From: Cyanidioschyzon merolae
Taxonomy: Eukaryota
Length of the DNA stretch: 64,000 bases
Strand: one strand, 5' to 3'
NCBI GenBank assembly: GCA_000091205.1
Contig: AP006485.2
A program made the position numbers and the translations under genes. The notes beneath the pieces were generated by a model. That model was not told the DNA's origin. It did not search any database and saw only the letters and a program-made list of their open reading frames with translations. Positions 3,450 to 42,884 of the stretch are shown here, piece by piece. How positions within the stretch are numbered: the first letter of the stretch is position 1; each line of letters opens with the position of its first letter.

Positions 3450-4154
3450 GAACCCCGGTTAGACTTTTCGAGTGTATACCATAGAAAAATGGATCACTGT
3501 TGTGAGGTCATTGTAGTTGACGCGTGAACGCGTTCGTGCAACGCTCGGTGCGACTCCACCAGTATCTGCGTCCGTCTATGTGTGTTCGTGTGTATCAGGG
3601 CATATGTTTTTCAACAAGTTCTGCGCACTGCTTTACGACGCACATCAACGCCTGCGAAAAGCGTACACCATACCGTCGATACCGGGACAACGCGCTCAAC
3701 CGCTGCGTCCGTCACTGACACTAGACGTTGAGCCGCGCTCTCAGCTCTCCAGGCATTCATCTGCCGTATTCATGTTGCTGAGACTCCAAGAACTGTAGAC
3801 CTAGCATGACAGTAAATGTTCACGTGCAGAGAGATGAGAAACTGCAGAGAAATACGAACCTTTCATATGTAGATATTAGGGATTGTGTAGCCTGCACAGC
3901 ATATCAAGCTTGTACTGCTCATCTCTACACATCCCATACAAAGCAAAACGAGACCCGGCTCCAGTCTTATATGCCAAATACCTCCTTTCCCGCACCTGCA
4001 ATACCTTGTCAGTTCCATGCGAGTCTCCCATTCAAGAACGTCAAGACGAGAGCCTTGTTGCTACGAAGGTGCCGCGAACACTGCGGCGTCGACCGCATCC
4101 AGAACAATCAGGTTTTCCGTTTAGTTGTTGCCCGAGCGACTGGATGTTTTGGAC
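3450..4154. repeat. 705-bp dispersed repeat, copy 1 (about 98-99% identical to 34454..35157), abutting the 5' end of the EngA-like gene.
   Basis: Direct comparison of the two blocks shows only a handful of substitutions. Six-frame ORFs 3517..3798 / 34521..34802 and 3806.. / 34810.. are near-identical in translation. Confidence 0.9.
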
Positions 4155-4200
4155 GCACAAGTTCGTTTCTGATAGGTACACGCGTCTTCCATCTTTGCCG

Positions 4201-6150
4201 ATGCTGCGACATGACTCTAACCAAAGCGCTGCAGGCTCATCGTCTTTTGTTTGTAGTGGTGACGGTGTGAGGCTGGTGGCACCCCTGCGCTTTGAACGCT
4301 TTTCGCGCAAGCCCAGAGGCTCTCCACAAGCACGCCATCACTATGGCGTCGCCTCGCTGCGTCTGGAACCCGACGGGGTTCCTTCCAGAGTTGCAACCGC
4401 GCGTCTGAAGGCTAGCAGCACACACAAGGAGTCAAACTTGCCTTCCAGTCGACAAGAGCTTGTGCCGAAAAGCTCTGACGATCCGGCGGCTGCCTCTGCA
4501 CTGAGGAACGATGCACAAGCCACCTCACCTGAGACGGATACGGAACCTTCCAGTGATGCTGGTCTCTCCGAAAATCGGACTGCCTCTGACGGTGTTACTG
4601 AGGACTTGTCGATTCGAGGCGAGGCTGTTACAAGCGCAGAAACTGGCCTTCGTGATGAAACGAGCCCTGCAGCTGCCGAGCGCTCCGCAGCAACCTCTGG
4701 AGTTTACCGAAAAAGCTCTTTACCGCTGGTTGCTGTCATTGGACGCCCAAACGTAGGCAAGTCTATGCTCGTGAACCGCATCAGCGGTACCTTTCGCACT
4801 GGTGCTGTCGTAGAGGATACACCGGGTGTTACCCGAGACCGCACGTACCAGTTAGCGAACTGGAGCGGAAGACACTTTCGTGTCGTCGATACCGGCGGTC
4901 TCGTTTTCGAAGACACTCCTGGAGACGTTTTTATTCCGCAAATTCGCCAGCAAGCGCTCATAGCTCTACGTGAGGCGGATGTTGTCGTTCTTGTCGTCGA
5001 CGGCCAGCAGGGCGTTACCACCCTCGACCAGGATATCGCTGTTTTCCTTCGCAAGACTTGCGATGCGCGGGGCATCCTTGGTCGACGTATTCCAATCGTT
5101 GTTGCGGTCAATAAGTGTGAGAGCCAAACGATGGGCGAGGCCCAAGCTGCTGAGTTTTGGGAGCTGGGACTGGGCCAGCCGCTGGCTATCAGCAGTATTC
5201 ACGGCAGCGGTGTCGCAGAATTGCTCGATGAAGTCTGTTACTATTTACCCAATCATGGCGATGATCAGGAGGAGGCGCTATTGTCACAAGAGTCTGGTAT
5301 GCGGCGTGTCGCCATCATTGGTCGACCAAACGTCGGGAAATCGAGTCTGCTCAACGCGCTCCTCGGGGAAGAGCGGGTCATTGTGAGCGCCGTACCCGGC
5401 ACCACGCGAGACGCGATCGATGAGCTCCTCATCCAACGCGACCCTCGCACCGGAAGAGAGACCTGCTACCTGCTCATCGATACGGCAGGCATTCGACGGA
5501 AGAAGAACGTGGAGTACGGCACGGAGTTTTTTATGATCAATCGAGCATTCAAAGCGATTCGTCGTGCAGACGTGGTTCTTTTGGTCCTTGATATGGAAGA
5601 GGGTATCACGGATCAGGACGCGGAGCTGGCGGAGCGTATCGTAGACGAGGGCAAGGCCTGCGTCATCGTTGGGAACAAGTGGGACGCTCTCGGTCGCAAG
5701 GATAATCGTCTCCATAACGAGGCACAACTGCGGGTGCGGGAGCGATTGCCAGTGATCCACTGGGCGGATATGATTTTCGTGAGCGCAAAGACCGGACAAC
5801 GTATTCCACGTATCTTGGCTCTGGTGGACGCTGCAGCGGCACAGCACGCGCGACGCGTGTCAACGGCGGTGCTCAACGAGGTTCTCTTGGAAGCGGTGCA
5901 ATGGCAAGCACCGCCGACGAATCGTCGAGGCCAGGGTGGCAAAATATACTACTGCACACAGGTTGCGGTGCAGCCACCGACCCTGGCCCTCTTTGTGAAC
6001 GATCCTGAACTCTTCCCGGACACTTACAAGCGATATCTAGAGCGCAAGTTCCGTGAAGCGCTTGGATTTACCGGTACACCGATTCGACTGCTGTGGCGAG
6101 CGCGGAAGCGCCGTTCCAAGGCGGCATCCTCGCGAGCGACGCGTAAATGA
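4201..6150 (+). CDS. engA: EngA/Der-type double GTPase, ribosome-biogenesis GTPase of bacterial/organellar type, with an organelle-targeting-like N-terminal extension. The track ORF begins at 3883 but that part lies inside the 705-bp repeat.
   Basis: Two consecutive G domains (G1 [10 protein letters not shown]...DTPG / DTGG; G2 [12 protein letters not shown]...DTAGIRRK...GNKWD) followed by the KH-like C-terminal domain. A Ser/Ala/Thr-rich region precedes GD1. Confidence 0.88.
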
Positions 6151-7835
6151 GACGCATTTTCCTCGTAGATGAGGACTTGCGATGAACCTGGCCCGCTGTA
6201 CTAAGGCCTGGCGGTCATTTCTGGAGCCGAAATGCGTGCCAGACCCGTGGACGAAATAGCACTTGGCTTCGATGACTTTTATGGCGCGTCTGCTTGGGCA
6301 AACGTGATTCAAAATGACGGCGCCTTTGACTGTATTCGTATGAGCGGTGGGTATGAATCCACCACACACACACACAGACAGATAGAGAGAGAAACTGAGA
6401 TACCAGGCAAACCTGTGATATGACGTAGGTGCTCTGTCTCGGGCGTGCACCTCAATGTTTGGGACGCGTACCATTGTGCTCGATACCTGCCTTTGGGGTT
6501 TGTTCTGCGATCGCGTCCTTTGCCTATCTCTTATGCTCTGCCTTACGTATGCCGATGCCGCCTATACTCCCAGCTCTGTTGTCGGCAATCGGCAGTTACT
6601 GATGACAGCGATAGAGTCCTGGTTTGGGCGCTTTCGGAAGTAATCGACGCATTCCATGCTCAGGCGGAAGTTGCGATCTATGATTCGCTTGCCATGTTCC
6701 TGTTCTTTGCGTACTGCCTCGGTACACGCCTGGCAGCTGTGCCTCTTGGCTCTGCACAGCGGTTCGCGTATGTCGAGCGCACCCGTCTCCCCGAATGCTG
6801 GCCTGTGGCGCGTCAACGCTTGCACGATTGCTCGGTACATGTTCTCGACGGTACACACAAGTCGCCCAGCGATGCGTTGTGCGGTTTTCGCGCCCAGTCT
6901 CGGGCGCCACGATCAACAGCTTCTTCTCTGCGATCAGGCTGGCGAGCACTCTACTCAATAAACGTGCAAGCGTACGCTGTTCGATGGGATCGTGTATCGG
7001 TGGAATGCAGAGCGTCCCATGATGAATCAAGCACTTGAAGCGAAATCCAGGTTGGAGAACGAGTCGGGAGCTTCTGATGCGTCTACGCTCCCTTTGTACC
7101 AAGCTGTGACGCACGCCCTACTGCGAGCGATCACTTGTATGAAGGAAGGTCGCGTGCAATACCCTTCTCCATGCAAAAAAAATAAGAGACGGGAGCCTTC
7201 GCGAGCATATCCCATGTGAGTTATCATGCTGCTGTCGAGTGTTGCTCCGTCGATAGTCAGAGAGGGCGTAGGATTGAAATTTCGATCGGAATCGAGTGTT
7301 CGATTGCGTGAGAAGATCCGTGACCTTCGGTTTGGGCTCGTGAAAAAGTCGTCAACCGACGACGTCGAGTACGTTTGCTCGTCAATCCACTTGGACGATT
7401 TGCAGTGCCCACGAGTAACCCTGAAGTAGAAAGATCGAAATCTTGAAGAATGAATGCATTCAGCGAACGATGCACAAGAAAGGATAAGAATATCGGCTTG
7501 TACGTATGAACTGGTTCATGATATCGGTTATTTTACGGTACTGGAGTCTTGGGTGTCGCAAACAACTCGAACAGCAAAGCGCCGAACAAGCCATTCCGAA
7601 TGAACCACTGATGATCCTAGAACTACTTATGAATCCTGAATCCCCTATGACTGCACTTTGAATGTCGATGCGGTACATCTCAAAGTAGCACGAGAAAAAT
7701 CTAAAGCCAGAAACAGAGGCCTCTAGTTTCCTGTTCTATGCAAATCTACCATGCGTGTCGACGATACTTGTTCTCTCCTCTCGAACATCGGAAGGTTTTT
7801 CTGCGGACAAGTGAAAAGCTTCGGTTGCCGAATCA

Positions 7836-8840
7836 GTGTTCGCTGAAAAGGTTTCGAACAGACGAACGGACGGACGACGTCGTACCGTTTGCATGGTTTC
7901 GCCGGTGGAACCGGGGTTCACTGGCGTTCTGGTTACCACAGCAACGGGACGCGTTTCCAGGGCTTGTCGTGAAGCACTCGAGAGCTTTGCTGAACTCTGC
8001 TCTGAGAACACTGTATGTGAATTTGCTGGTGCTCAGGGCGTTCACGACGATAGCCGACTGCTGGGCGTCCAGACTGCGAACGACAGCGGCACCGCTGACA
8101 CCGCATCGACTCTGAGTCCCAAGCAAGCGACGCCGCAGGCTGCATCGTGGGTCAAAGTCCACGACACCGGCGTGCGGAATACGTTTTTTGTACGCATAGA
8201 GTTGGAGCAGGCACCCAGACCAGTGGAACTGGTGAAACTGCTCTTTGAACAAACGCGAAAGCAGGGTTATGTAGCTGTACCGTCCTGTGAGAGCTTTTTC
8301 CCCATAGATGTTGTTTGCAAAGCCTATACTCGTCACGCGGCACTCGCTTTGGCGGATCATGTAAGCGCATGGTTGCAGGCACCGATGAGCGGTACGCATA
8401 CGAAGCCGTGTCGCTTTGCGGTACGCTTCAGGTCCAGGAATAATGATCGAGTGCAAGCGCACGACTTTATCGACGTTATCTGCCGTCATGCGGTGCCACT
8501 GATTGAGCGGGGCCTCGCTCGAGTGGATCTCACCGAACCGGATGTCATTATTTACGTGCATATTCTGGGAAAGCTGTGCTGCTGCGGTGCAGTGCCTCGG
8601 GAGCTGCACCATCTCTCGTCGCCGCGCCTCAACATTCACGCGTGTATCCCGCGCCTCGCAGTCCAGGAGAAACGGGCCTTCGGGGAGCCACGAATTCATG
8701 CAGAGCCCGTGGCTGATCACTCAGCATCAGGGAAACGTCGGCGAGTAACAGACTCGCAAGCAGAACGAGATGGAAAGAGCACCGGCATTTCATCCTGTGA
8801 TGGTGTTCAAGCTGAGTCGAACGGCGTGCCGCCGCCGTGA
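7836..8840 (+). CDS. THUMP-domain protein (THUMPD1/Tan1-like, tRNA ac4C cofactor). Start may be M at 7893.
   Basis: Colinear motifs against human THUMPD1 (ours/human): RNTFFVRI / NNVVFIRT, FPIDVVCKAY / PISGTCKAF, FAVRFRSRNNDRVQAHDFIDVICRHAV / FQIVYKSRNNSHVNREEVIRELAGIV, RVDLTEPDVIIYVHILGKLCCCGAV / KVDLTNPQYTVVVEIIKAVCCLSVV. Confidence 0.78.
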   Translation: MFAEKVSNRRTDGRRRTVCMVSPVEPGFTGVLVTTATGRVSRACREALESFAELCSENTVCEFAGAQGVHDDSRLLGVQTANDSGTADTASTLSPKQATPQAASWVKVHDTGVRNTFFVRIELEQAPRPVELVKLLFEQTRKQGYVAVPSCESFFPIDVVCKAYTRHAALALADHVSAWLQAPMSGTHTKPCRFAVRFRSRNNDRVQAHDFIDVICRHAVPLIERGLARVDLTEPDVIIYVHILGKLCCCGAVPRELHHLSSPRLNIHACIPRLAVQEKRAFGEPRIHAEPVADHSASGKRRRVTDSQAERDGKSTGISSCDGVQAESNGVPPP

Positions 8841-8899
8841 CGGAACCCCAGCGTCTGGATGCCAGACGGGCGAGTGCTGTCGATACTCGAAGTGTACCC

Positions 8900-9075
8900 G
8901 ACTCTGATGCATCTACGGATGAATCGTTCTCTCGCAGCACCGGCATTGTATGGAGCGGGGAACAGAAAACCAGCACTGTACGCGACTCCGATGCATCTAC
9001 GGATGAATCGTTCTCTCGCAGCACCGGCATTGTATGGAGCGAGGAACAGAAAACCAGCACTGTACGCGACTCCGT
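8900..9075. repeat. 84-bp tandem repeat, about 2.1 copies, in the 3' flank of the THUMP gene.
   Basis: Unit gactc(t/c)gatgcatctacggatgaatcgttctctcgcagcaccggcattgtatggagcg(g/a)ggaacagaaaaccagcactgtacgc repeated head-to-tail, seen as the DSDASTDESFSRSTGIVWS.EQKTSTVR duplication in ORF 8837..9118. Confidence 0.9.
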
Positions 9076-11526
9076 CGTCTCGTACATGGCGCCGTCTTTC
9101 CCCGCATCATACTTGTAGAGCTCTTAGTGGAGACGAATATTGCGCTGTGCATGCGAATGCACGAATCCTCGGACAGTGAATCGCTCTCGGTACATCGCGT
9201 TCGTGCCTGATGATGCCTTGCATTCTGCGAAGGGCGTTCCAAGCGCAACGTTCACGATGCCGCGGCGTTTCACCAGCTGCACTGGAGGATGCTCTCGTGC
9301 AGCACTTGCTCGCACCTGCTTAACGACTAGAGACGCGTAAGCGCGAAGAACATATCGGGGGCGTCACGTTTTCCTCTGGAGCATGGAGATGGATTTCCTC
9401 CTTTTCGAATTCGGGTCAATACAACGTGTGCATGCACTGGAACCCATTGGATGATTGGATGTTGAAGGCACAGCATCCAGGAATGGAACGATCCCCAAGA
9501 TGCTCATCGTCATCTCTGAATCGAATTCGAAGCGGATGTACTCAGGGTTTCAGGGGCACGTACGGCTCGTGACGGCTGCGGTAACTTGGGCAACCCAAAA
9601 TGGTTTGGATAGTGACGTCCTCGTCATACGTCCTCGATAGAGTGCACGCTCGGAAGCGTCGGATGCATCTCGATAGCACTGGGGTTCGATGAAGCAAACC
9701 TCAGCTGATCCTTTCTGAGACTCGCCGTCCTGGATCCGCTGCGTTTCTTGTACGAAGTATCAGACTGAGACCCGGGCGTTTTGATCTCCAGAATATCGAT
9801 TCTGCAGCGTTGCAATGGCACATCAACTTTACCTCGATGCTGGTGCATCCGTTTGCGCTGCTGACATCCGCGACGTCCGACTCTGACGATTGCCAAGGCC
9901 AGCGTGCGGAGATACGATCGCTGTCGACCTGGCGGATGCTTAGGGAATGCATCTGATGTATGGATATTTTGGAGCAGCCTTGATCGCTTGGATCACGGCA
10001 ATAGACTCTGAAATATTGAATCGTGGAGCACTAGTATCGTCTACGCTTTTCGAAGGGAAATCGTTCGCGGTGTGCATAGAGAATCCGTTCCAGCCCTGCT
10101 GGATGGCTGAAACACCCCATGCGAGCGCCTCGCTCCTGGCGAGGATCCCATGTCCCGTTCCATGGGAACTGATGGTTTTGCATCCGTATTATGCCGTGCT
10201 TCAGCGAAATAGCCACACTGAGTATGAAACGATTCCTTCGAAAGTTCACTTGATTCAAAGACGACGTACGCACGGGAAGCTCGAGACATTTTTCCCGACG
10301 CTGATAGGGGCATTCGAGTCTCGCTTGAGAGAGCGCTTGGGCGTATGGTTGCTGGTTGAGCTTCACCAAACCAAGTGTCTCAGATTCGATGACCTAATCA
10401 TGTGATGTTCGATCAGCGCACCGTACTTGACCTTGTGTATACGACTCTGTTTCACACTGTTCTTCTCGATTGGTTTCGTCGTCCAGCTATGCGTATGATA
10501 CGTACCTGCCGTCCTGAGTGCATTGATGGGAATCGTGCAGAATCGATTCCTGCTTGCGTTGTCCGCGCTCGTCGACGAGGCAAGACCGCAGCCCTGACGC
10601 GCCATGAAACGCTCAGCATCGTGGGGTACTCGCGAACGACGAGACTGGTCAGGTGTTTGTTCTTGAAAATCCTTGAACAAGTTGGCGAATGCAGGCATCC
10701 CGTCTTTATACAAACGAAACCGTCGGTGATCCCAGCGCGGTCTCGAGTACTCGTAATCGAGATTGTTTGCTCGATCCATTAGGACGTTTGTGTACTCTCT
10801 ACATGAAGCGTAGAAAGCATCCTCTTCAGTGGATTGGGTACTCCGAGTGCAGAGAAGCGCGCGGACGCCACCATTCTAAACGTTTGCATGCATCCTGGCG
10901 TCCAGCATGCCCGACTCTCGATCATACCGATGCCTAGAAAACGTGGGTACCTCCATCCGCTTTCCATTAAGGCCGTCGGCTCCGCCCTCTTAATTTAGAA
11001 GCGCACTGACGGCGGTGATGTGTTTGAATACGGAAACCACGCACACTAGATCGTCTAGCTCTTCACCTATCTTGAGCGATCGACCGTGAGCTTCGTTACT
11101 CGACTCGCGCCAGGTTTCCGTGGAGTGCTTCCACACGGATGTTCACTCGGTCGCTATCGACGCTGTGAATTTCTTTCGTTTTCATCCTTACAGACGAGAG
11201 ACGTTGGGCGAGCTCCGTCGATTCTCTACTCCGCGACGTTGGAGTGAAGTAGGACTGCTAGTAGAGACAAGTCGAAGCGTTCTGAGAAGGCTATCCAGCA
11301 CAATACCCATGTGCCTACGGCGACATCGTGAGCTTTCAGCTCAGTTTTGTTTCGCCCCTGATGCGATGTATAGCAGGAGATCGAAATCTCGATGCAATGC
11401 GCTGTATAGATCGTCGACGAATTGCCTGTAGGATACGTCTTGTCCTGGACAGTGCGAGGTGGACTGCAATCCTCCTTCACTTCAGTCATAATGAAGTACT
11501 CTGATGGTTGCGGAACATCAAAAGGA

Positions 11527-12700
11527 ACAAGTAGATGTGTTCCGTGCCAAAAACAGGTATATTCAAAGAGTGGTTGCGGTCAACAGTAGAGAATGACCGG
11601 TTGATCACCCTAGGGAAAGCAAAACCGTCAAATGTAGTCGCCACGGACGTCCCTGTTCCTCAACAGCATGTTCGTGTGGTCGTGAAGACACCGGGATACA
11701 GTCGCGAAAAAGTCCTAGATTATGCATGGCCATCTTGCACCGAAATCGCAACGACAGCCTTCCTGGAGCGTCGCTATAGGTATGAAGCACAGTGACTTTG
11801 ATTTGTTTTTTTTTCTGTGGGTGAGACTTCCTTTCGAAGATATGGTCGGAGCGTATGCCGGCATTCGCGGAACAGGGCGCCCATTGTATGTAAATTCGAT
11901 TTAGATGAGAACGAGGATATCACGATCAGTTCGAGTTGCAGTGGATTCACTCTGCGGCCTCAGATTCGCTCGAGGAGAAAGCTCGTACAACGACACGAAC
12001 AGCTTTGTCGAATTCTTGAAGACTTTTCCGGACGTTCGATGACGTCCTTCTATGTTACAACCTGGCGTTTGACCATTCTTCTTGCGTTCACGCTTTTGCC
12101 GATTCAAACGGGAATAGAGCAGCTTTTCATTCCACTGTACGCTCCGTAATCCAGGCCCAGTGAAAGAGCGTTCTCCATCTTGATACGGTATGATCGCTTC
12201 ATTGGGCGAATCGCTGGAGTGTTCAGCACGCGGTGACACACCAGGCCATATGCCGTTGTTCTTCCGCGAGTCCATCCACCGCAGAGAGCGTCCTCACCTG
12301 GGTGCAGAGACAGGTGCATTCATTTTCAAAAAATATAAGGGATGAACTGAGATGTACACGTCCGGAGGCCGATATAGAGGGAAGGCAGCGGACCGCTTCG
12401 GCGATCGAAAATCACGGAGAGCCAACAGAGCACCAAATGGTACAGAAGGCGCGAGTTCCTGGAATCCTTGCATTGGCGAATCCAACCAGCGGCAAGAAAT
12501 GCAAAGAGCTTTCCATCCGAGACATGAACGCTACTTTCAATATTAGGAGATCTGCGACGCTGAAGACGATACCCGAGGTGCTTACGCAATGTAATTTTGC
12601 AGGGCAGCATCTCAGGCTCGAAGTGTACAAGGAGACGCTGAAGCTGATAGCAGGCGGCCGGATATAAATACACTGGGAGGCGTCTGCGGGCGGAGATTAA
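11527..12700 (+). mobile_element. Internally deleted, decayed copy of a TnpB/Fanzor-like transposon: N-terminal fragment plus RuvC-III end plus conserved 3' tail.
   Basis: ORF 11535..11795 is homologous to ORF 48240..48608 and to the end of the 45089..44415 ORF (FLERRYRYEAQ / FLERRDRYEAQ / FLDRELERKAE). ORF 12233..12667 carries a degenerate RuvC-III (ELSIRDMNATFNIRR; compare NRDFNAAINIRR at 43030). The 3' non-coding block 12553..12700 is conserved with the other two copies. Confidence 0.6.
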
Positions 12701-15104
12701 TTTACCAAATAATCGAAAAATTTTTTGTTTTCTTTACATGCACGTCCATGGGCATTTATCTAGTATACAGGACGCAAATCGAATAATCGTTTGGAGAGGC
12801 TAGCGCGCTCGCACACGAGCAGGGAATCCGCTTTAGCAGTGGCGTGCTCTGTTCAGCACAATACGTCGCTGAAAAAGGTGCAAGGCAGGCAGGCATCGTA
12901 TTCCAACTATCCTCCTGGAAACGCGTCCGCCAGTGCGAGGCTCAGAGCAACGACATGAGCCTGGGCGATCCGGAGCGACGCTCGCACGCGTTGCTAACCC
13001 GCTTCCGAACTCGCCACCAAGCGGTTTCTTTTCTGCTGCTAGGAGCTCATGAATTGGCTGCATTGACTCGCGAAGAATCCCATCCGTCACTCGTATTTTT
13101 TTTCTGAGCCAGAACAGTGAGGCTTTTTTTTTGGCGTATAACGTCCCTGAGGGTACCTCTCGTGAAGCGCTCGAGATTAACGTGTGTATGGTTTCTGATT
13201 TTGGTTTGAAGTTTCCTTAACGTATGCGCTGTAGAGCCCAGGTCGCCGAGATGCCACTGCGACTCGTCACAGGATTCTAACACATGCGTGTGCAAATGAC
13301 AGGTGCAACGATACGGAAGTATTGCATCTTCTGTACCGTGTATCCGTTGTGTGGTTGCATATGGGTTTCGTCGACAAATTCCGGAGCAATGTGGACAGCT
13401 GGCTGCCCTGTCGCCAGCATTCCTGCTTAAACTTGCTTGACGAGGTGCGTCATAGAGAGAGAGAGAGGCGAAACCAGGATCCCTCTAATAAGAAGCTACG
13501 TGATCCACCACGGTATTCTGTACGTTTCGGTACCGCGGATGCGAGCGACTCTGCTATTGAACCGTGATCGCAGTGAAAACGTTTCACAACAGAAATGACG
13601 ACTTCGACTGGATTGCACCGGACAGAACAGAACGGCACGAAGAGAAGCTCCGCGCTAGTCACAGCTGCGTTCTCCTCGACGGTTTTTGAGTGGTGGAAAA
13701 CGGCGGTGTCTAAACACAGGACATGTTTGTTTGGAAATGAGGAGCCACGAAGAGTGTTTCGACGGAGGTTAGGGTGCTTAACGCACTCGTCGCTTTGGCG
13801 GCGTTCAGGCGACCACGCAACGGACTCGTCGTCTGGGCAGGTACTGTTGCGATATTTGTTTGTCTCGTCTTTCCGAACAGCATTTTTGCCCTCTATGAGT
13901 TCCTATACGCAGGTCTGTTATTTGTCCCGAAACAAGTCTCACCGTTTGAGACTACGACCCGTTCAAACTGTAACAGTGTTCGCATTTCAATACAATATAG
14001 AGAGTAAGTGGGTCTGCGCGCGATAGTCTCACATTGAAGCATACCGGTTTCTTTGTCCATCGGTGTCCGGTTATCACCTTTCGTATCAGCGGGGCGGACA
14101 ATTCAGATCCTATGGTTCCTTTGGTAGGATTTCTCAGAGGTCGCTTGTAGTGAAATGAATAGACAAGAGGAAACAGTCCCGTAGAAAGAGTTCAATGAAC
14201 TCTGTTTCGGATGCACGATGAGAAGGATATGGACGACGAGAAATATGGTCGATCCGCGTGATGAAAGCAGACTTACGGACATCTACAAGTAGGGACGTTT
14301 TTTACACGCTCATAGTGACAGTGTAACATGTTTCCACCACCTTTCTCCAATCTGCAGGATACATTCCTGCTGTCGAACAACTAAGAGAAAAACAATCATA
14401 AACAAAAGGGCATGCAAATATATGTGCTCCAAAAATCGCTGCTCCTATAATAGGGCGTCTCGTGTGGACGCCAGCAAGTGCCTTCTCTCGATCGCTGTTC
14501 TTGAGCAACAGCGTATCGATGTAGCGAACTAGATTCTCCCAGATGCACAGCCTCTGGTGATGACCAGGAAGTAGACCTCGGGCATTAGCCCAGGATGCAG
14601 GACCCGACCAACCCCAGTGCAGCGTACCCGGATCAAGTCGGCGCTCGATCAATGCTCCAGTGCCCGGTACACCAGCTCGTGATCGCGCTTGAAACTTTGG
14701 AACGCAGATTCCATCCTGGGATCCGCGGAATGATTTTACCCGATCTGGTGTCCATGGGTGATACTAGCTACATCCAGGTACGTGCACGAACAATCGCCGC
14801 GACTCCAGATGCAGATATCGAAAGGCAAATCCTTCGTTATAGCAGACGCACCCTTGCAAGCACATGTACGAGTATATCTATATGCGCAGGCGCGCTCATT
14901 CGTCCGAGCATAAACATGCACGCCTGAATATACGCACGTACGTCCATGTATACATCCATAGACTTTCAAAGGAGGCAGAGGGCATGAACAGTGGTCTTTT
15001 TGTGAAATAACATCTCTGCATACCTGCAAGGCAGGCGGTAGTGATCCCCCACCCCGCCCCCGCCCCCCAACCCCGAGAAACATTAACATGCCCTGCCGCA
15101 GCGC

Positions 15105-15884
15105 TTACCCGGCCTCGACACCGATACGGAAAATCGTTCGCGATGGATAAACCCACGTCTGACTCGCCTGCTCCTCCAGCGATGAGAATCGCTGGAGGAG
15201 CTCCTCGGGTGCTGTTTCCAGTGCCATGCGCACCGTCTTGGCAACGTGCTCGACGGAGACTGCGAGTATGCCCCCCATGGACAAACGAAGTGTTTTCACA
15301 AGCTGCTGGGCAGCGCGTTCTGCTGGTCTGCTCGCACCGCTCGTTCGAGGCGGCGTCAGCAGCATGCCAGGCCTAAGGATATGCAGGGCCGCTCCGTATT
15401 CTGCACACAGCGCATGGACATGTTTCTCCGTCTCGCCTTTGACCCGCATGTAGAAGAAGAGAGATCGCTCTGAAGCACCAGATGCGGATATTAGTGCAAT
15501 TTTCCGAGCTCCGCAAGCTAAAGCTGTTCTTACGAAACCACAAATATAGTCGTGATCGACCCGTTGGAAAACCTCTTTTGACCCCCCAGCGTCTTTCATT
15601 GTGGTTCCCAGCGCACACACGGCAGCGCCAACGCCGGAAAGACTCCATAGCGGACAGTCCTTCGAGCGCCGTTCCGCAGGCGTTAATGTTAGTTCCCCAA
15701 AGTCCTCCAGAACGATCACGCGCACTTTACCAGCGTCTGCGAACGGGAGGCGAACATTTGCGCGACGGCAAAGGGCAATGACTTCTTCGCACCGCGGAGT
15801 TGCCACCAGCTCACGAACGATAGCTTGGCCACAGGCTCCAGTGGCACCAGCAACGAGAACCTTGTACGAGGCTGCGGCACTCAT
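15105..15884 (-). CDS. HTATIP2 (TIP30/CC3)-like NAD(P)-binding oxidoreductase, atypical SDR.
   Basis: N-terminal Rossmann motif KVLVAGATGACGQ. Colinear with human HTATIP2 (CALGTTMKDAGGSKEVFQRVDHDYI...IALISASGASERSLFFYMRVKGETEKHV versus [23 protein letters not shown]...[27 protein letters not shown]). Confidence 0.75.
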   Translation of the reverse strand: MSAAASYKVLVAGATGACGQAIVRELVATPRCEEVIALCRRANVRLPFADAGKVRVIVLEDFGELTLTPAERRSKDCPLWSLSGVGAAVCALGTTMKDAGGSKEVFQRVDHDYICGFVRTALACGARKIALISASGASERSLFFYMRVKGETEKHVHALCAEYGAALHILRPGMLLTPPRTSGASRPAERAAQQLVKTLRLSMGGILAVSVEHVAKTVRMALETAPEELLQRFSSLEEQASQTWVYPSRTIFRIGVEAG

Positions 15885-17309
15885 GACGTGCCCGATAGCC
15901 CAGGGGTCGCTTTGTGGCGTTCAGCCGCAGCACCAGAAGCGCCAGTACCAGTACCGGGGTGTCGAGCGGAGTCGAACTGCAGGAGCAGTGTCAGTAGAAG
16001 CCACTGTAACAATAGACTCGCAGATTGGCAGTGCAGAAGCAGTACCCGAAGCAGCAACAGGTTTGCGAGAAGCAGCCGACGCTGCAAATCGGCTGCTCCT
16101 CGCAGGCCTTCCATGCAGATCAGTCGATGACACAACTTGGGGATCGTGAAACTGTAGAATGAAATTGTTTGCGAATGCAAAAGTCCCAATTGGTCATTGA
16201 AATTTACTTCGGGACACGCAGATGCAACTGACTGACACAATCAGGATTGCTGGAGTACAGCCAATAGCTCGGGTTCTGCGACGGAACCGTCGCACGAGAC
16301 CCATGGAAGCCACCAAAACAGTCGTCTAGCACTCTAATGCGACTTTCTAAAGCAGAAAAGTTAACGCTATCAACTACGAGCGGAGCAGGTGCTCATCACA
16401 TCTCATACGCCTGAGGATTCTGTTTCACGGCATGCGGTGCCATTGTCGTAGCGACGACAATCTCATTGACAAGATCACCTGCTTTGCTTCGAGCATATCG
16501 TCAAGAAGATAACGCAGAGCCGTTCTGTCTCCTTGTGGTGATCGTGCATGTTGGCTCGGCATTGTGGCAAGCGTCCGCACTAGGTAAAACACCAGCACCG
16601 TTTCAGATCGATCAGCCATCTAAGCTTCACGGGAACATGCACTCGAGGTCCATGGAACCTAGAAGCGTCAACAATCGTCATGCGGTGCGGTGTCCGGCTT
16701 GTTGCATTACTCGAGCATCCAACGGCATCTGCGTAGATTCCCTGACTTTGTCCCTAGGATGAAGCTGCTTCGCGTCTGATCCCTAATAAGTCTGAGACTG
16801 CTTCGGCGACCGCGCAACCCGCATGCCGAAAACACCGTGGAGGAACTCGGCAGTGTTGCTACGTCTATTGAATCCGCGCAAATGTATGCCAGTGATGCTT
16901 CATGTAATGTAAAGCGCACGGACGCTAACGGCAATCCTGTCCAGTCTGGTGACCAGGTCGGCCTGTTTCGCGAGTCACGCCGCGCACGACTTTTTCAGTA
17001 ATTGCAGGCAACACTAGAGGCAGCCTTTCAACGAACCAGCAGCACCGGATGGGCGTCTCATTCGTGGATGGTAGCATGCGAGATCCGCGGGCGAAGCAGA
17101 GCTCGCTCCCCTGAATACCGATACCCGTCGTGCATCCGGGATGCCCGATACAATGGATTGATCCGGCACCATGCAACATGTGAGCCGCGGTTGCTAGCGC
17201 AGGCGCGAGCACTGCTCAGTGAACCGCCAAGACGCCGCGTTTCCACCGGGCAGCCCGCAGCAAGGCCCGGCGCTCGAGCACCCACAAGACCGTGCAACGG
17301 TCGTAGGGA

Positions 17310-18014
17310 TCAGAGGATTCCGTACCTTCCTTCAAACGCATGGCAAACGCGACTGCAAATGGTTGCGGCAGAACATGCATATGCGCTAATGGCCATGTGC
17401 TCCTCGGTCCAGTCGGGAGCAATATCCCCGTGGCTGATCGCACCAATAGCAAAAGCCACATCCTCATCATTGGCTATATCATGAACAGCAAGTTCACGAA
17501 TATCTCGAAGTTTTTCGCTCGTATCCGTGAGGAGGATTTTACGGCATCCCACGGGGAGATGTTTCGCAATGGGATTCGGCACCACTCTCATCAGTATTTC
17601 ATTTGAGTTCGTCGCCAAAATTCGACGTTTCTCTAGCAGCTGCGCAACAAGTCCACTAAAGCGACGAAACGTGCGCGGTAACCGCACTCTAGGGTGCACT
17701 TCGATGAGAACGTTCTTTTCCGTGTGTATGAACACACGCAACCGACCCGCTTTGTTCAGAGGAGAGTCCAGCAGATTCAGCAGACAATGATGTGTGATGT
17801 CTGGGCGATATTTCGCGGGATCGCTCCCCAATGATCGGGTAATGAAGGTGGCGTGCTCCTCGCCCGAGAGCAGCACAAGCGGCTCCGCGGCACCTTGGCG
17901 CCGCTTTCCTTTATCGACCCGAGCGGCTTCAAGACAGGCCCCTTCAAGCACTACGTAGACTTTCCCACTGCCTATGTAGTCCTCAGTGGATACCTCTGTT
18001 CGTCGACGCTTCAT
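17310..18014 (-). CDS. EMG1: EMG1/Nep1 SSU-rRNA pseudouridine N1-methyltransferase (SPOUT fold). Start called at MKRRRTEV (18014); the track ORF extends to 18197.
   Basis: Near-colinear with EMG1: VVLEGACLEAARVDKGK, ARPDITHHCLLNLLDSPLNKAGRLRVFIHTEKNVLIEVHPRVRLPRTFRRFSGLVAQLL, NPIAKHLPVGCRKILL, and the C-terminal CSRVCHAFEGRYGIL. Confidence 0.88.
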   Translation of the reverse strand: MKRRRTEVSTEDYIGSGKVYVVLEGACLEAARVDKGKRRQGAAEPLVLLSGEEHATFITRSLGSDPAKYRPDITHHCLLNLLDSPLNKAGRLRVFIHTEKNVLIEVHPRVRLPRTFRRFSGLVAQLLEKRRILATNSNEILMRVVPNPIAKHLPVGCRKILLTDTSEKLRDIRELAVHDIANDEDVAFAIGAISHGDIAPDWTEEHMAISAYACSAATICSRVCHAFEGRYGIL

Positions 18015-18329
18015 TACACCCGTAAGTTCTACAACACCGAGAATATACTCGAACACCTGACACCGCCGTCCGATGTTTGACGGTACGGCGGGCAGGCCGG
18101 ACGCCCGCCGCGACGCTGCGGAACACACACCCCAGCGACGGCTGTGGAGAAGTGTCGACGAGCTATTGGAGTTGTTGCAAACTGACGTTGCTTGCACACC
18201 AGTGTTACGGGGTATTCAGCGCTTGTGCTGGCGAAACACTAGGGAAGACATATCCGCAACAGATCCTTTGGGGGTTGTACGTGCGGCTGGTGTACGATTA
18301 ACAAGGAAAGCGGTTACCGCTTGTGAAGC
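18015..18329. promoter_or_regulatory. 315-bp head-to-head intergenic region between EMG1 (-) and eIF3i (+): candidate bidirectional promoter.
   Basis: Divergent orientation of two confidently called genes, with start codons at 18014 (-) and 18330 (+). Confidence 0.4.
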
Positions 18330-19325
18330 TTGCCACGTGCTATGCGGCCGCTGCTTTTGAAAGGGCATGAGCGCCCGCTGACCCAGCTCAAGTTCAATCC
18401 TGAAGGGGACCTGCTCTTTACAACCGCGAAAGATACGCGCCCAACGGTATGGTGGGCCTCCACCGGCGAGCGTCTCGGCACGTACGACGGCCACACGGGT
18501 GCTGTTTGGTCGTGCGACGTTTTCTGGGACTCGACGCGTCTTCTAACCGGCTCTGCCGATAACACTGCGCGCCTCTGGGACGTCCAGACGGGACGAGAGC
18601 TTTTTCGTTGGTCGCTACGATCTTCGGTGAGATCGGTGGGTGTGGCGCCCGGCTGCCGTTTGATGCACCTCGCGAACTCCAAGCTCCTGGGCCAGGAGTC
18701 CTGCATCCACCTCTTTCGTCTAAAGTCAGACGGTAACTGGCAGGAACAAGAGACGGAACCGTTCCTGGTGCTTCGTGGGCATACGGCGACCATAACTGGA
18801 GTCGTTTGGTACAACACGGCCGAGTATATGCTCTCGGTCTCGGAGGACGGCACAGTCCGCAAATGGGATGTCGAAACCGGCAAGGAAGTCGATCGTGCCA
18901 AGCGTCACAAGAAAGCAATCACCGATATCAAGTTCAGCAAGGATCATCAGATGTTTTTGACGGGATCTGCAGACGGGACAGCGGTTCTCTGGGATACCCA
19001 CGCCATGCAGGAGATCAGGTCATTCGTTCTGGACCGGCCGCTCAATGCGGTGGACTTGTCGCCGCTCATGCCCCACGCAGTCGTCGGCGGTGGCCAGGAA
19101 GCGAGCCAAGTAACGACTACTGCTGGCAAAGCTGGCAAATTTGCAGCAACGTTCCTTCATTTGATTTATGGGGAAGAGATTTTCTCGGTGAAGGGCCACT
19201 TTGGCCCCATCAATTGTCTCTCTTTTACACCGGATGGACGTGGCTTTGCCTCCGGTGGTGAAGATGGATACGTCCGTTTGCATCACTTTGATGAAGAATA
19301 TTACCGGCGAAGTAGTGAAATATAA
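18330..19325 (+). CDS. EIF3I: Eukaryotic translation initiation factor 3 subunit I (eIF3i/TRIP-1), WD40 beta-propeller.
   Basis: N-terminus MRPLLLKGHERPLTQLKFNPEGDLLFTTAKDTRPTVWWASTGERLGTYDGHTGAVWSCD closely matches eIF3i ([26 protein letters not shown]...). Multiple WD repeats; size 331 aa. Confidence 0.9.
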   Translation: MPRAMRPLLLKGHERPLTQLKFNPEGDLLFTTAKDTRPTVWWASTGERLGTYDGHTGAVWSCDVFWDSTRLLTGSADNTARLWDVQTGRELFRWSLRSSVRSVGVAPGCRLMHLANSKLLGQESCIHLFRLKSDGNWQEQETEPFLVLRGHTATITGVVWYNTAEYMLSVSEDGTVRKWDVETGKEVDRAKRHKKAITDIKFSKDHQMFLTGSADGTAVLWDTHAMQEIRSFVLDRPLNAVDLSPLMPHAVVGGGQEASQVTTTAGKAGKFAATFLHLIYGEEIFSVKGHFGPINCLSFTPDGRGFASGGEDGYVRLHHFDEEYYRRSSEI

Positions 19326-20244
19326 AAGAGTTTTGTTGCACGACGTTTGGACTCGGGCAGGGCACGGGGCAGTTTCCGTCGCGTTCCCCAGCAGGCAGGC
19401 TTCCGCGATAGCGATGTCATGTAGTTGCCCTACAATAGGTCTGTGTCCGGAGTTGCTCTGGAAACAGGCTACGAAACGCGCTGTGGAGCACGCGATGCTT
19501 CGTTAGCTGGGCTGTGTAGCTCTAGAGGCACCGTGCATGGCATGCGCGCCCATACGGGGCTTGTTCACAGAAGCATAGGCGCGGTCGTTCATCGAAAGCG
19601 CTATGCCACGGTGCCTGCATCGAATGTGGTGAGTAATCGGCGACAGAGACCCGATATCTCCATTGCGAAACGAGTGTCACCAGACGTCTGTCAGACCCAA
19701 TCCGTCCATGCAACGCCTATGGTTGCTTCTCGGGAGCCAGCGCTCCACTGTTTGGCACGCGACCGTCAAGGAAGCCACCGCTATCCGTCGGTGGCGTTCG
19801 GATATCAGCAGACAAGGCTTTTTCGAAGAGGTCATGCACGATGAATCGAACAGATTTGATGTTTGCGGTCGGAACGAAAGACAGCACCCCCAAAGATGCT
19901 CGCACCGGCTCCTCGATTCTATATGCTTGAGTTTTCACGCAGATTCTCTCCATGCGAAACCTGATTTCGCTGATCGCACCGGTTCATCGAGCCGCACTCC
20001 AACGTCCGAGCATCATCGTTCCGTGCACCTTGACGTCCAATAAGTCCATAGATTTCGCATTTGCATGCGTGTCTGGGCAATGCGCGCAACAAATCGATCA
20101 TAGAACGCGCTGCGACGCGGCCGCGCGGCTTACGCGTGCGTTGGCGCGACGCACGCATCCGATGGCGGGAATTCGGCACGCATGCGTCACGTCGCATGCA
20201 ACTGTTTTCTGTTCAACTTGCAGCTTGAACGTTTGCGGGCAGGA

Positions 20245-21444
20245 ATGAAGGTTTTTTCAAATGCAGCGCTTCCTTTGTTCCTACGGAAGGATGCCGGGTC
20301 TATGGTGAAAAACAGGACGCGCTCTTTCCGTTCAAGGCCTTGTGCTGTTGTCACTTCGGCGCTGACTCTTGTGCTTTTTGGCGTCTTGATGTGGTTGCAG
20401 CGTGGCGCTAGGTTCGCGTCACCGGCTGCAAGCCGCCAGGAGTCGCAAGCCCGAGGCGTAGATGCCTCTGATGCTTTTGAACAACCTCAGGACAGCGTTT
20501 CGCAGACGGGCAACGGCCTGTCCATGCGCTCATCTTGCGCTGGTGAAGTCGTCTTCTTTATTCGCAGTCGGAGCAGCGATTTTCCCGAGCGCGTGCAGAG
20601 CGTCCTCAGCACCTGGGGCCAGCTCTTCCCACCGGAAGATCTCTTCTTTGTGTCTGGGGATCCTGTTCGAGACAAGTTCGGGGCGCAGGTGATTGTCGAA
20701 CCGCGTATTGGAGCGGACCCGCTCTATGGACGTTTCCCCGTCCATGACCCGTTGGTGCTGGGTCTCGCATGGAATGTGCTGCAGCAGAGGCAGCAAGTCC
20801 GTTTTATCATGATTATTGACCCTGACACATTCGTTTTGCCCGATAATCTGTGCTCGTATGCGATCCCAGAGGTTTCCAGTGGTAGATCGCCCTACAATGA
20901 CTACGTCTACAGTGGGTTCGGAGTTTATATGGGCCCGCCCTGGGGTGCGAATAACGCCGGCACCTCCTGCCTCGAAAAGGGCAGAGCACCGCGCGAGCTT
21001 CCGAACCAAGGCCCTGCGGGAATTTTCGCTTCTGGACCGGTCGGCGTCCTTCTCAGTCGGGCGTTGGTCCGCGACCTCGCGCCATACGCAGAGGCGATCT
21101 GGAATGAGACCCAGTGCATCGATACCGGTGATATGCGCCTCTGGATGGGCATGTACTTTCATGAGAATGATGCGCTGCAAGGGAAAACGGTCCGTGATGC
21201 GATGTTGTGCTCCTCATTGACAGCATCGGGAAATCTGATGTCTGTATACGAGACCTTGCCGCCGAACCATGCCGTTGTCGAGCGAGACTTCGAGACCTTC
21301 TATGCCACACTGCCGCAAACAAGTCCAGATCATGCAAGAATTCTCATGGAGATGTTTCGCAGGCATCAAATGAGCGCGCTAAGCGCCGCCGATATCATGC
21401 TCGAGTTCCAGCGTCTGCGGAAATGGCGAGAAAACGTACGTTAA
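20245..21444 (+). CDS. Putative type-II membrane glycosyltransferase (Fringe-like / GT31-type fold). Function uncertain.
   Basis: N-terminal signal-anchor AVVTSALTLVLFGVLMWL. Luminal domain with DxD-like IMIIDPDTFVLPDNL and overall Fringe/DUF604-like pattern. Motif-level only. Confidence 0.4.
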   Translation: MKVFSNAALPLFLRKDAGSMVKNRTRSFRSRPCAVVTSALTLVLFGVLMWLQRGARFASPAASRQESQARGVDASDAFEQPQDSVSQTGNGLSMRSSCAGEVVFFIRSRSSDFPERVQSVLSTWGQLFPPEDLFFVSGDPVRDKFGAQVIVEPRIGADPLYGRFPVHDPLVLGLAWNVLQQRQQVRFIMIIDPDTFVLPDNLCSYAIPEVSSGRSPYNDYVYSGFGVYMGPPWGANNAGTSCLEKGRAPRELPNQGPAGIFASGPVGVLLSRALVRDLAPYAEAIWNETQCIDTGDMRLWMGMYFHENDALQGKTVRDAMLCSSLTASGNLMSVYETLPPNHAVVERDFETFYATLPQTSPDHARILMEMFRRHQMSALSAADIMLEFQRLRKWRENVR

Positions 21445-21685
21445 GGGCGTGTTCAGAGACCCGCGATGTTCCACGAGACCCTGCGCCGCCATCTGATGTT
21501 TTCGCACATTGCATATCTGCGTTTGAGGTGCTTGATGACGATTCTTTAGGACATCTCAACGGTGCTGTTGCCTGCTGTGCACCGCGGACAACAAATGAAG
21601 CGATTCGGCTCTCCGATAAAGCTCTTTGAATCGGATGCCACGCGAGGAACGCGGAAAAGCGCGATGCAAACCTTTTTCAACGCAG

Positions 21686-21880
21686 GCGCTGGATTCACGT
21701 TCACAGGGTTGCCTCGTTCACCGGATCCTCCATGTGCAACAAAGACCTGCGCGATGAGAGACTGCATTGGTCCAAGAACTGGATTCGCCTTGACGGAGTT
21801 ACCCCGTGCACCGGATGCTCCATGCGCAACACAGGTACGCGAGCTGACAGGCTGCTCCGGCACACGCAACGAGACAGCTT
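21686..21880. repeat. Imperfect tandem duplication of about 96 bp, 2 copies at about 80% identity.
   Basis: ctggattcacgttcacagggttgcctcgttcaccggatcctccatgtgcaacaaag... is followed by ctggattcgccttgacggagttaccccgtgcaccggatgctccatgcgcaacacag... (GLPRSPDPPCAT / ELPRAPDAPCAT in ORF 21562..22059). Confidence 0.6.
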
Positions 21881-22490
21881 TGAAATATGTATCGTATTCT
21901 GGCAGATTTCAATATCTCGGTATATTATTCATCAGAAACCCGAAGCCTGGTACCATAAAACGAACACGTCGTATCCGTCCTCTGGACATGCGTCCGCGAA
22001 AGCAGAGTTCGTCAGCGACCAGTAGGGAGGCAAACGAGGCATCTGTGGTTCGCAGATGAGCGCGACAACATCGGCTCAAGCCTCGTGCACCGCTTCATAC
22101 AGGCGCTGCATGTAGAGAAACGCGGTTGTCAATCCGCACCGCAATTAAGACTCGATTGCAGCAGAGAAAAGGGCAGTCAACGGAAGCGTGCCCCCTGGGT
22201 ACGTGCACGAAAACAAAATGTGCAGCCTCGTCCGCATGAGGCGATCGCGTGCATCCTATCATACGCTTCGCCAGAGACCTGGCGGATACAGCGTCGTATG
22301 ATCGGACCATGCTGCGCAGAGCCGAATCCGTTCATGTACGATGTTGCATGCTCTAATAGAATCCCCGTAAACGACCAGAGAGCAGTTTAGAATGTCAGGG
22401 TGCGACACACCCTATGGTGCCCCGGATGTACCCGAACGACATCAGATGAAGGGAGACCAGATGTGGTGTTCCCCGTGCAGCGACTCAGTT

Positions 22491-24317
22491 TCATTGCTTA
22501 AACCCAAAACCGCTCTTCTTGGATGACGAGGCATCACTCTTCTTCTTATTAAGTTTTCGACGAGCAGCTCGGTTCCCGATATTGCTTGCCAGATCCCCAG
22601 ATGCCAGGTTCGTCGCCAAGTCTCCCGGATTCTGTGACGCATTCGAAGGAACCGGTCCAGCGCCACTGCCACCGCCCATCATCCTTCTCGACATCTGGGC
22701 CATCACGTTCCTCATGTTCACGAAATCGCGCATGAGGCTCTCCACTTGCTCCAGCGATCGACCCGATCCCCGGGCAATCCGTCGCATGCGACTCGCCGCC
22801 GTTTTATCAACGGTGAGTAGATCGGGATTCGCGCGCTCCCGCGGCGTCATCGAATTAATGACAGACTCAGCTAGGCGCAGACGCTTTTCGCCAGCGCGCA
22901 ACTGGTCCTCCTTCAGCATACCGGAGACGCCAGGCAACAACTTTAGAACGCCGGCGAAGGAACCCATCGAACGCACGAACCGAGTCTGGCGTAAAAAGTC
23001 ATTGAAATCAAAGCGCGCCTCCAGCATCTTGCGAGCCAGCTGTTCAGCCTCCTTTTCGTCGACCGCCTCCTGCGCACGCTCAACCAGCGTGATGATATCA
23101 CCCATGCCGAGGATGCGTGACGCCATTCGATCTGGATAGAATTTCTCCAGTTTGTCCAGTTTCTCACCAACCCCGATGAATTTAATCGGCGCCCCCGAGA
23201 TCTGCTTGATCGACAACGCTGCGCCGCCGCGCGTGTCGCCATCCATTTTCGTGAGGATCGCACCCGTGATCCCAATCCGCTCATGGAATGCTCGCGTGAT
23301 ATTGGCTGCCTCCTGACCGATCATCCCATCGACAACGAGCAGGATTTCCGCTGGAGAGAGCACCCGCTTGATCTGTTGAAGCTCCTCCATGAGTCGCTCA
23401 TCGATGACTTGGCGGCCGGCTGTGTCCACGATCATAAAATCGAACGCTTTCTGTTTGGCGTAGTCGAGGGCTCTGGTGGCCACCTCCAGTGCGGTAACGG
23501 AGCCGGTCCCAACCATAGCTGGGATGAAAACTTCCGTTTCAATTTGTTGACCTAGCGTTTGGAGTTGCTCGACTGCGGCTGGTCGCTGCACATCAGCCGC
23601 AACGAGCAGAACCTTTTTCCGCGATCGCTTTTCGGTTTGGAGTAAACGTGCAAGTTTCGCTGATTGTGTCGTCTTGCCAGCGCCCTGCAGGCCGGCCATG
23701 AGAATCACGGTAGGTTTCGTGGGACTCTCTGCTAGTGCCGGCAGAGGAGATGCACCCGCCTTGCTGGAACTGGTCGCCGGGTCACCGCCTAGCAGGCGAA
23801 TCAGCTCGTCGTAGACGATTTTCACGAACTGCTGGCCTGGTGTTACGCCTTTCACAACCTTCATGTTCAGCGCTTGCTCTTTAATCGCGGCAAGGAGGAT
23901 GTCGACCACTTTGACGTTTACATCAGCGTCAATCAAGGCGCGCCTCACTTCTTTAAGGGTCGGCTCGATATTGGTCTCCGTGATTTTGTCCAGACCTCGC
24001 AGTGCGGCCAATGAGCGTTGAAAGTTTTCGGTAAGGGCTTCAAAAAGCATTCGGGTACCTGCAAAGCCATGAGGAGAACCCCGCAGAGCGTGAAACCTGC
24101 GGAAAGCAACCTGCTCCCTCTCCAGGTGCAGCACTCTTGCTGTTGCAATACCCGCCCTGTCGTAGCTTCCTAGCCACGCTGACTTGTGACGGAAAGAGCA
24201 TCCCGTGCTCGCCTGGGGCCCGAACCCGCGGCTGTTTCTTCCGGGGCAAACAGCTCGCAGCTGCCTATTGCGGGAGGTTCTTGACCAACAAACGTGAACC
24301 TGAAAGGCTGTTTGCAT
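22491..24317 (-). CDS. ffh: Chloroplast-type signal recognition particle 54-kDa protein (cpSRP54 / Ffh homolog) with an N-terminal presequence of about 95 aa.
   Basis: Ffh-like N domain (MLFEALTENFQRSLAALRG..EVRRALIDADVNV). G domain with GLQGAGKTT, DTAGR and TKMDGDTRGGAALS. M domain with the Met-rich C-terminus. Presequence is rich in R/S and has no hydrophobic signal peptide. Confidence 0.9.
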   Translation of the reverse strand: MQTAFQVHVCWSRTSRNRQLRAVCPGRNSRGFGPQASTGCSFRHKSAWLGSYDRAGIATARVLHLEREQVAFRRFHALRGSPHGFAGTRMLFEALTENFQRSLAALRGLDKITETNIEPTLKEVRRALIDADVNVKVVDILLAAIKEQALNMKVVKGVTPGQQFVKIVYDELIRLLGGDPATSSSKAGASPLPALAESPTKPTVILMAGLQGAGKTTQSAKLARLLQTEKRSRKKVLLVAADVQRPAAVEQLQTLGQQIETEVFIPAMVGTGSVTALEVATRALDYAKQKAFDFMIVDTAGRQVIDERLMEELQQIKRVLSPAEILLVVDGMIGQEAANITRAFHERIGITGAILTKMDGDTRGGAALSIKQISGAPIKFIGVGEKLDKLEKFYPDRMASRILGMGDIITLVERAQEAVDEKEAEQLARKMLEARFDFNDFLRQTRFVRSMGSFAGVLKLLPGVSGMLKEDQLRAGEKRLRLAESVINSMTPRERANPDLLTVDKTAASRMRRIARGSGRSLEQVESLMRDFVNMRNVMAQMSRRMMGGGSGAGPVPSNASQNPGDLATNLASGDLASNIGNRAARRKLNKKKSDASSSKKSGFGFKQ

Positions 24318-26007: not shown

Positions 26008-26036
26008 CACATCTCGCTCGCTCGCTCGCTCGCTCG
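26008..26036. repeat. (CTCG)6 microsatellite.
   Basis: ctcgctcgctcgctcgctcgctcg read directly. Confidence 0.9.
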
Positions 26037-34445: not shown

Positions 34446-34453
34446 TTTCCGGG

Positions 34454-35157: not shown

Positions 35158-35169
35158 CTTTTCCCGCAG

Positions 35170-42701: not shown

Positions 42702-42884
42702 TCTTGCCACGAGCGCTCGGATCCAGGCCTTGAGTAACGTCTGAGATGCGAGCACTGCCCGTTGTGTGATTGTTTGCGTGCGAGGGTGCGTTTGTGTCGG
42801 TATACCACCGGTAGAGCGGGCGCACAGTCGAACGATGCCACCGGTGTACAGAAGCGGCGAGAAACCCGCTTTCGAGGAAACGTC

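Follow-up and report, generated by a model that had tools for sequence, protein, structure and literature searches.

Concerted evolution is textbook knowledge in the case of rDNA, tandem arrays and a small number of duplicated coding genes. Among dispersed gene copies, those of tufA/tufB in bacteria and TEF1/TEF2 in yeast evolve in concert by gene conversion: two copies at separate loci are near-identical within a genome and diverged between species, the duplication took place before these species separated, and non-reciprocal homologous recombination is the accepted explanation. In human fetal globin HBG1/HBG2 and similar tandem duplicates, the conversion tracts take in 5' flanking sequence, and promoter-proximal DNA is thereby homogenized with sharp tract boundaries. 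Short non-coding repeats located immediately 5' of genes as possible promoters are represented by MITEs and by solo LTRs that donate promoters. For Cyanidioschyzon merolae, Nozaki et al. (2007) described an interspersed repetitive element of 253 copies and a mean length of 3.2 kb on all chromosomes, together with an absence of LTR elements (PMC1955436). In Cyanidiococcus, Cho et al. (2023) found repeats to make up only 0.59%, and the gene pair described below was not mentioned (PMC9812998). Our literature search returned no relevant report of either process, gene conversion or concerted evolution, from Cyanidioschyzon or Cyanidiococcus, and nothing relevant on shared promoters of unrelated genes.

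Here we describe a 705-bp block (R) of C. merolae 10D which resembles each of these systems in part. Like tufA/tufB and TEF1/TEF2, it is present in two near-identical copies at separate loci and derives from a duplication older than the species compared; the unit in those cases is, however, coding, under strong purifying selection and alignable between orthologues, whereas R is non-coding, completely turned over between species and located upstream of two unrelated genes. The proposed homogenization of R resembles that of the HBG1/HBG2 flanks, but the latter belong to co-converted paralogues, while the genes downstream of R are non-paralogous and the homology stops before their start codons. 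R shares with MITEs and solo LTRs its small size and its position, but it lacks inverted or long terminal repeat ends and a target-site duplication, it has only two copies, and insertion does not account for a gene pair that is the same from species to species. The 253-copy element resides in the same genome and is similar in length if R is summed with an adjoining repeat (X), but it has hundreds of copies and a truncated WSV486-like ORF, whereas R and X are two-copy repeats and R contains no long or conserved ORF. What is new here is thus a two-copy, non-coding, promoter-proximal block common to unrelated genes, rewritten between species and about 99% identical within each of them.

The window analyzed was a stretch of 64,000 nucleotides of C. 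merolae 10D chromosome 3 (GCA_000091205.1, contig AP006485.2), in which 7 of 10 long ORFs looked up are exact matches to annotated 10D proteins (range BAM79001-BAM79013). Copy A of R is located at 3450..4154 (+) and copy B at 34454..35158 (+), forming direct repeats 31,004 bp apart. The two copies were compared using MAFFT and blastn and differ by 6 mismatches and 0 gaps over 705 bp (99.15% identity), in agreement with the difference of only a few bp given in the first-pass annotation, which had placed both copies correctly except that copy B was ended one base short, at 35157. The edges of the block are sharp on both sides, and the homology of copy A to copy B ends abruptly at 4154. Copy A lies between a HAD-hydrolase gene (stop codon at 3057) and the Der/EngA gene, from whose ATG it is separated by a 46-nt unique spacer (4155..4200, +). 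The Der/EngA gene (4201..6150, +) encodes a double GTPase of the chloroplast ribosome-assembly type, 649 aa from ATG 4201, with two MMR_HSR1 domains and a KH_dom-like domain in Pfam. Copy B lies immediately 5' of a gene for a Ubp2-like ubiquitin-specific protease, here USP (35170..38343, +; 1057 aa), which matches BAM79009.1 ("similar to Ubp2p") exactly and contains the Pfam domains UCH and UIM; the unique spacer is 11 nt in this case (35159..35169, +). The earlier placement of the block directly 5' of two unrelated genes was therefore right, since Der/EngA and a UCH/UIM deubiquitinase are involved, while the gaps of 47 and 13 bp given for them were corrected to the 46 and 11 nt above. The 30.3-kb interval between the copies (4155..34453) contains EngA, a THUMP protein, a TIP30-like protein, EMG1/NEP1, eIF3i, CMC065C, SRP54 and others (Pfam), and its synteny is kept in both relatives examined.

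A second repeat, which the first-pass annotation had missed, was detected by self-comparison of the window. Repeat X spans 2623 bp, and its copy at locus B (31823..34445, +) is 99.0% identical to a second copy at locus C (59601..62223, +). At locus B, X adjoins copy B of R with an 8-bp filler, TTTCCGGG (34446..34453, +), at the junction; the filler is absent from loci A and C. The locus B copy of X carries CMC069C (33051-33500, BAM79008.1), an annotated protein of 149 aa with no Pfam hit. Its counterpart in the other X copy (60829-61278) differs by 4 residues and is apparently unannotated, and CMC069C is probably a spurious ORF. The longest ORFs reach at most 154 aa in R and at most 149 aa in X. 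No paralogy was found between the genes that precede the two X copies.

Copies of R were searched for independently of their flanks by an exact 22-mer scan of JGI metagenome contigs, which yielded 3 loci, and by an exact look-up of a 49-aa ORF within R, which yielded 7 contigs; all of them fell into the two known contexts. Including those reached via the EngA and USP proteins, R is present, whole or in part, in 17 contigs. The left flank is always the HAD side (a1) or the X side (b1), and the right flank is always EngA (a2) or USP (b2); multiple copies at unrelated sites were not found among the contigs carrying R. Among the public contigs found, X likewise occurs in two contexts only. R is thus a two-copy repeat among these contigs, and a third copy elsewhere in the genome is unlikely. 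With only two contexts each for R and X, R can be classed neither as a dispersed family nor as a piece of the 253-copy element. The context of copy A (a1-R-a2) recurs in six independent contigs (L005, L006, L008, L015, L017 and L020) and that of copy B (b1-R-b2) in one (L014). The repeat is not an artefact of the 10D assembly, since other assemblies, made independently, show the two contexts as well.

The same gene pair was then located in two relatives via the EngA and USP homologues. The first relative, here sp2, is represented by JGI contig Ga0531430_00015 (L010) and by NCBI GCA_041825655.1 JBBELT010000080.1 (L032); its EngA and USP are 72% and 55% identical to those of C. merolae, respectively. 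In Cyanidiococcus yangmingshanensis, both loci are on one NCBI contig (GCA_013995675.1 VWRR01000012.1). Both relatives have a duplicated block at these genes. In sp2 it is 1279 bp long, upstream of EngA at L010 8607-9885 (ATG 10001) and upstream of USP at L032 8694-9972 (ATG 10001), with 1 mismatch between the copies (99.92% identity). In C. yangmingshanensis the copies are located at L036 8554-9921 (EngA, ATG 10001) and L034 7487-8881 (USP, ATG 8917, MRNFF), with 9 substitutions and a single indel of ~25 nt between them over ~1.38 kb (~99.3% identity plus the indel). The copies are direct repeats of matching orientation in all three species, 31.0 kb (C. merolae), 20.9 kb (sp2) and 19.1 kb (C. 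yangmingshanensis) apart. The edges are sharp, and the block ends 46, 115 and 79 nt before the EngA ATG and 11, 28 and 35 nt before the USP ATG in C. merolae, sp2 and C. yangmingshanensis, respectively. The left edge in sp2 and C. yangmingshanensis lies 931 and 1027 nt past the HAD gene at one locus, and 553 and 582 nt past a 311-aa gene at the other, so that the spacing is similar in the two relatives. All three species have the same gene order from the HAD gene to a cation-efflux gene.

The blocks of the three species could not be aligned with each other: blastn at word size 7 and tblastx returned nothing, local alignment scores were at the level of shuffled sequences, and shared 7- to 10-mers were at chance level. 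Other intergenic DNA is equally unalignable between the species, and all hits between L034 and L032 are coding. The possibility that R is ancestral intergenic DNA traceable in the relatives was rejected, as non-coding DNA cannot be aligned at this distance.

Within-genome identity of the block is hence far above its between-species similarity, which is undetectable, in three of three species. The block occupies the same two intergenic regions with similar boundaries in each of them, and three independent duplications with like boundaries are not credible; the duplication therefore predates the split of Cyanidioschyzon, Cyanidiococcus and the sp2 lineage, as judged from these sequence comparisons. 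A freely evolving duplicate of that age would be unalignable within the genome, so the identity of ~99-99.9% reflects homogenization and not youth. We consider it probable that R is an ancient duplicated 5' flanking region kept identical by intrachromosomal gene conversion. Both copies would drift between species as fast as any non-coding DNA, while non-crossover homologous recombination between the direct repeats would keep them nearly identical within each genome. EngA, EMG1/NEP1, eIF3i and SRP54 are essential in yeast, and strain 10D is haploid. If the copies recombined by crossover or single-strand annealing, SRP54, eIF3i, EMG1 and EngA would be lost, presumably with lethal effect; only conversion products would survive, and the repeat pair would be effectively trapped. 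The direct repeats would thus persist here because the crossover deletion would be lethal and non-crossover products would remain.

The smaller size of the C. merolae block (705 bp versus ~1.3-1.4 kb) can likely be explained by repeat X. The left limit of homology at the C. merolae USP locus coincides with the end of X, which probably sets the left edge of copy B homology. No copy of X was found upstream of USP in sp2 (blastn and gene layout), where the interval is only ~1.1 kb, or at the C. yangmingshanensis locus (gene layout). A copy of X may have replaced the left part of a longer block at the C. merolae USP locus and thereby ended the homology; the 392 bp to the left of copy A would then have no counterpart. 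Compared with the 441 bp preceding X at locus B, these 392 bp showed no homology.

Variation among strains was examined in metagenome contigs. Most EngA-linked copies of R carry T-C-A-A at R positions 121/130/131/133 (in strain-level consensus contigs that are unphased and in several cases chimeric), while the EngA-linked copies of 10D and L015 carry G-T-G-G, which is the state of all USP-linked copies. The G-T-G-G of copy A in 10D and L015 is the outcome expected of a B-to-A conversion and may be taken as a weaker sign of it. Of the six mismatches between the 10D copies, five fall within the first 269 nt of R; a run of 388 identical bases comes next, and the clustering is marginal (P ~0.06). 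Separately, R in the wild strains (L005, L006, L008, L013 and L014) was observed to differ from 10D by 1.3-2.7% and the 300-bp flanks by 0-1.3%; such excess variation in R is expected either from exchange between diverged copies or from a collapsed two-copy assembly.

Two alternatives to conversion of an old duplicate would make R a member of a repeat class. The first-pass annotation had interpreted it as a mobile promoter/5'-UTR cassette of recent duplication or a small non-autonomous element inserting by preference upstream of genes. The 99% identity of the copies and the position of both just 5' of genes agree with this, as does a TTTCC on both sides of copy B, provided that the insert is taken to include 3 nt more on the left and 1 nt more on the right. 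The pair is, however, offset by these 3 and 1 nt from the homology edges, and copy A has no target-site duplication; the ends of R, GAACCCCGG... and ...GTTTTGGAC, contain no terminal inverted pair at seed length 7, and the retroelement hallmarks (TG...CA ends, and a 3' poly(A) or simple-repeat tail with target-site duplication) are absent. Only two contexts exist in all assemblies reached, and the same gene pair carries mutually unalignable blocks in three species, for which independent insertions give no reasonable account; MITE surveys found no such elements in C. merolae (PMC3964958). Mobility is thus highly improbable, and the recent date proposed with it gives way to a duplication before the species split, since each species has its own block at the same two genes. 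The idea that R is a fragment of the 253-copy element, with locus B (3336 bp) as a full-length and locus A as a 5'-truncated copy, draws on the adjacency of X and R and on their sum (X + 8 bp + R = 3336 bp), which is near the published mean of 3.2 kb (PMC1955436). Against it, X and R have two contexts each instead of hundreds, locus C has no R, locus A has no X, the 8-bp filler between X and R is unshared, and the relatives have an R-type block at both genes without X; there is scarcely any chance that this idea is correct.

A further alternative treats the direct repeats as functional recombination sites, by which a 19-31-kb block would be excised as a circle or amplified, so that unusual junctions would be real molecules. 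Eleven contigs span R with both flanks (L001 and L004 being one contig), and four of these have exchanged flanks: the deletion-type junction a1-R-b2 was found in three independent samples (L001/L004, Ga0080006_1145043; L003, JGI24721J44947_10004819; L016, Ga0506617_00134), and the circle- or duplication-type junction b1-R-a2 in one contig (L019, SRR29605853_19164). These junctions, together with the same gene block flanked by direct repeats in three species, would be explained by such a process. The a1-R-b2 contigs, of metagenome or Logan origin and in one case up to 62 kb long, skip 31 kb of essential genes. However, mis-joins and breaks at R are expected because a near-identical 705-bp repeat exceeds short-read inserts, and assemblers would join the flanks randomly or break there; six contigs (L007, L012, L013, L018, L021 and L023) do end at or inside R, L013 beginning exactly at 34454, and L023 stops exactly at 34445. 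In addition, the R of chimeric contigs equals the normal R of other samples, as in L016 and L017. The chimeric contigs are probably mis-assemblies through the repeat, and functional recombination sites are very unlikely. It is also conceivable that R holds a fast-evolving non-coding RNA or a very small protein, perhaps transcribed divergently, with its position at the gene pair being incidental. The persistence of the two-copy state in three lineages would suit such a hidden gene, which is compatible with gene conversion, and transcription of a C. merolae repeat has been noted, although for a different element (Nozaki et al. 2007, PMC1955436). On the other side, Rfam run at the gathering threshold and at E<=1 gave no match in the three blocks except two sub-threshold chance hits, ARAGORN found no tRNA, and folding was no more stable than that of shuffled sequences on either strand (z -0.9 and +0.3). 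No ORF is conserved among the blocks of the three species by tblastx, k-mer sharing is at chance, and nothing is annotated at the blocks in the NCBI record of C. yangmingshanensis. A hidden gene is therefore unlikely, and the earlier view of R as a non-coding duplicate, in which a shared coding exon is improbable, was upheld.

As to function within the conversion model, R probably includes the promoter and most of the 5'UTR of both EngA and USP, a proposal held with less confidence than the model itself. Drawn purely from geometry, a shared promoter/5'UTR role would be the most plausible one. Since the block ends 11-35 nt before the conserved USP ATG, the USP transcription start almost certainly falls within R as predicted from position, and that of EngA likely does so. 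A 2025 paper describes TATA-box and transcription start positions as unknown for every endogenous C. merolae promoter (PMC12770821). No motif is common to the blocks of the three species, so that nothing in these sequences points positively to a regulatory element under constraint. A reading in which the identity of R is itself selected, R being a co-regulatory cassette that has coupled the expression of EngA and the deubiquitinase since before the Cyanidioschyzon/Cyanidiococcus split, appears unlikely to us; under it, the two promoters may co-evolve through gene conversion. In a bolder variant, the translation-gene block may in addition be repeatedly excised or amplified through the direct repeats, and the a1-R-b2 and b1-R-a2 junctions may be real.

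The start codons of both genes were affected by R in the ORF predictions. Two plus-strand frames are open through the 3' half of R and produce the ORFs 3883-6150 and 34810-38343, and prokaryote-style gene callers on metagenomes accordingly output a USP of 1177 aa (P0085 and P0088). The USP start at 35170 is the annotated one, and the N-terminus MRN[I/L/F]F is conserved in the two other species. The in-frame upstream extension of USP is not conserved in sp2 (GCA_041825655.1) and is therefore an artefact, as had been suggested for the N-terminal ORF extensions at first reading. For EngA, P0098 is 100% identical to the window protein over 649 aa, and translations from ATG 4201 and ATG 4144 gave no exact NCBI entries in the protein collection. 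In C. yangmingshanensis, USP (L034 8917-12058) was observed to consist of two overlapping out-of-frame ORFs (8917-10023 and 9836-12058), and because of this split the NCBI model F1559_002010 (685 aa) lacks the N-terminal third of the protein; the frameshift may be either an assembly error or real.

Several practical points follow for work on these loci. Near-identity of the two copies is no evidence of recent duplication or mobility. ORF-based gene callers lengthen both EngA and USP into R, short-read assemblies mis-join the R loci, and a gene-targeting construct whose homology arm lies in one of the upstream regions could integrate at the other. The case is unusually clean, conserved across genera and experimentally testable in a tractable alga. 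It can serve to decide whether gene conversion alone preserves a dispersed non-coding duplicate for long periods when deletion is lethal, or whether identical regulation is selected. C. merolae has efficient homologous recombination and simple genetics and is suited to such a test.

Other repeats and features were observed in the window. Two segments of ~1.38 kb, 11333-12705 and 48036-49404, share 68% identity with the same orientation and contain no ORF of more than 144 aa; they could represent decayed copies of the 253-copy interspersed element. A dispersed similarity of ~197 bp (72.6% identity) connects 25131-25326 and 31056-31249. CMC074C (45643-47529), a hypothetical protein of 628 aa, clusters at >=90% identity with CMQ418C from another chromosome, and some of its metagenome copies are mislabelled "preprotein translocase Sss1". 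Just upstream of it, the region 42000-46000 has a strong GC/AT skew (-0.16 / -0.14), and 75-bp tandem repeats are present at 43787-44091. At 55033-55310, a 138-bp unit is tandemly duplicated with 97% identity and overlaps the 5' end of the minus-strand ORF 55185-56330. Finally, an 84-bp tandem repeat is located at 8893-9074, just past the THUMP-domain ORF; the wild-strain contigs L005-L007 align to it in overlapping segments, which means one unit fewer than in 10D and hence a copy-number polymorphism.
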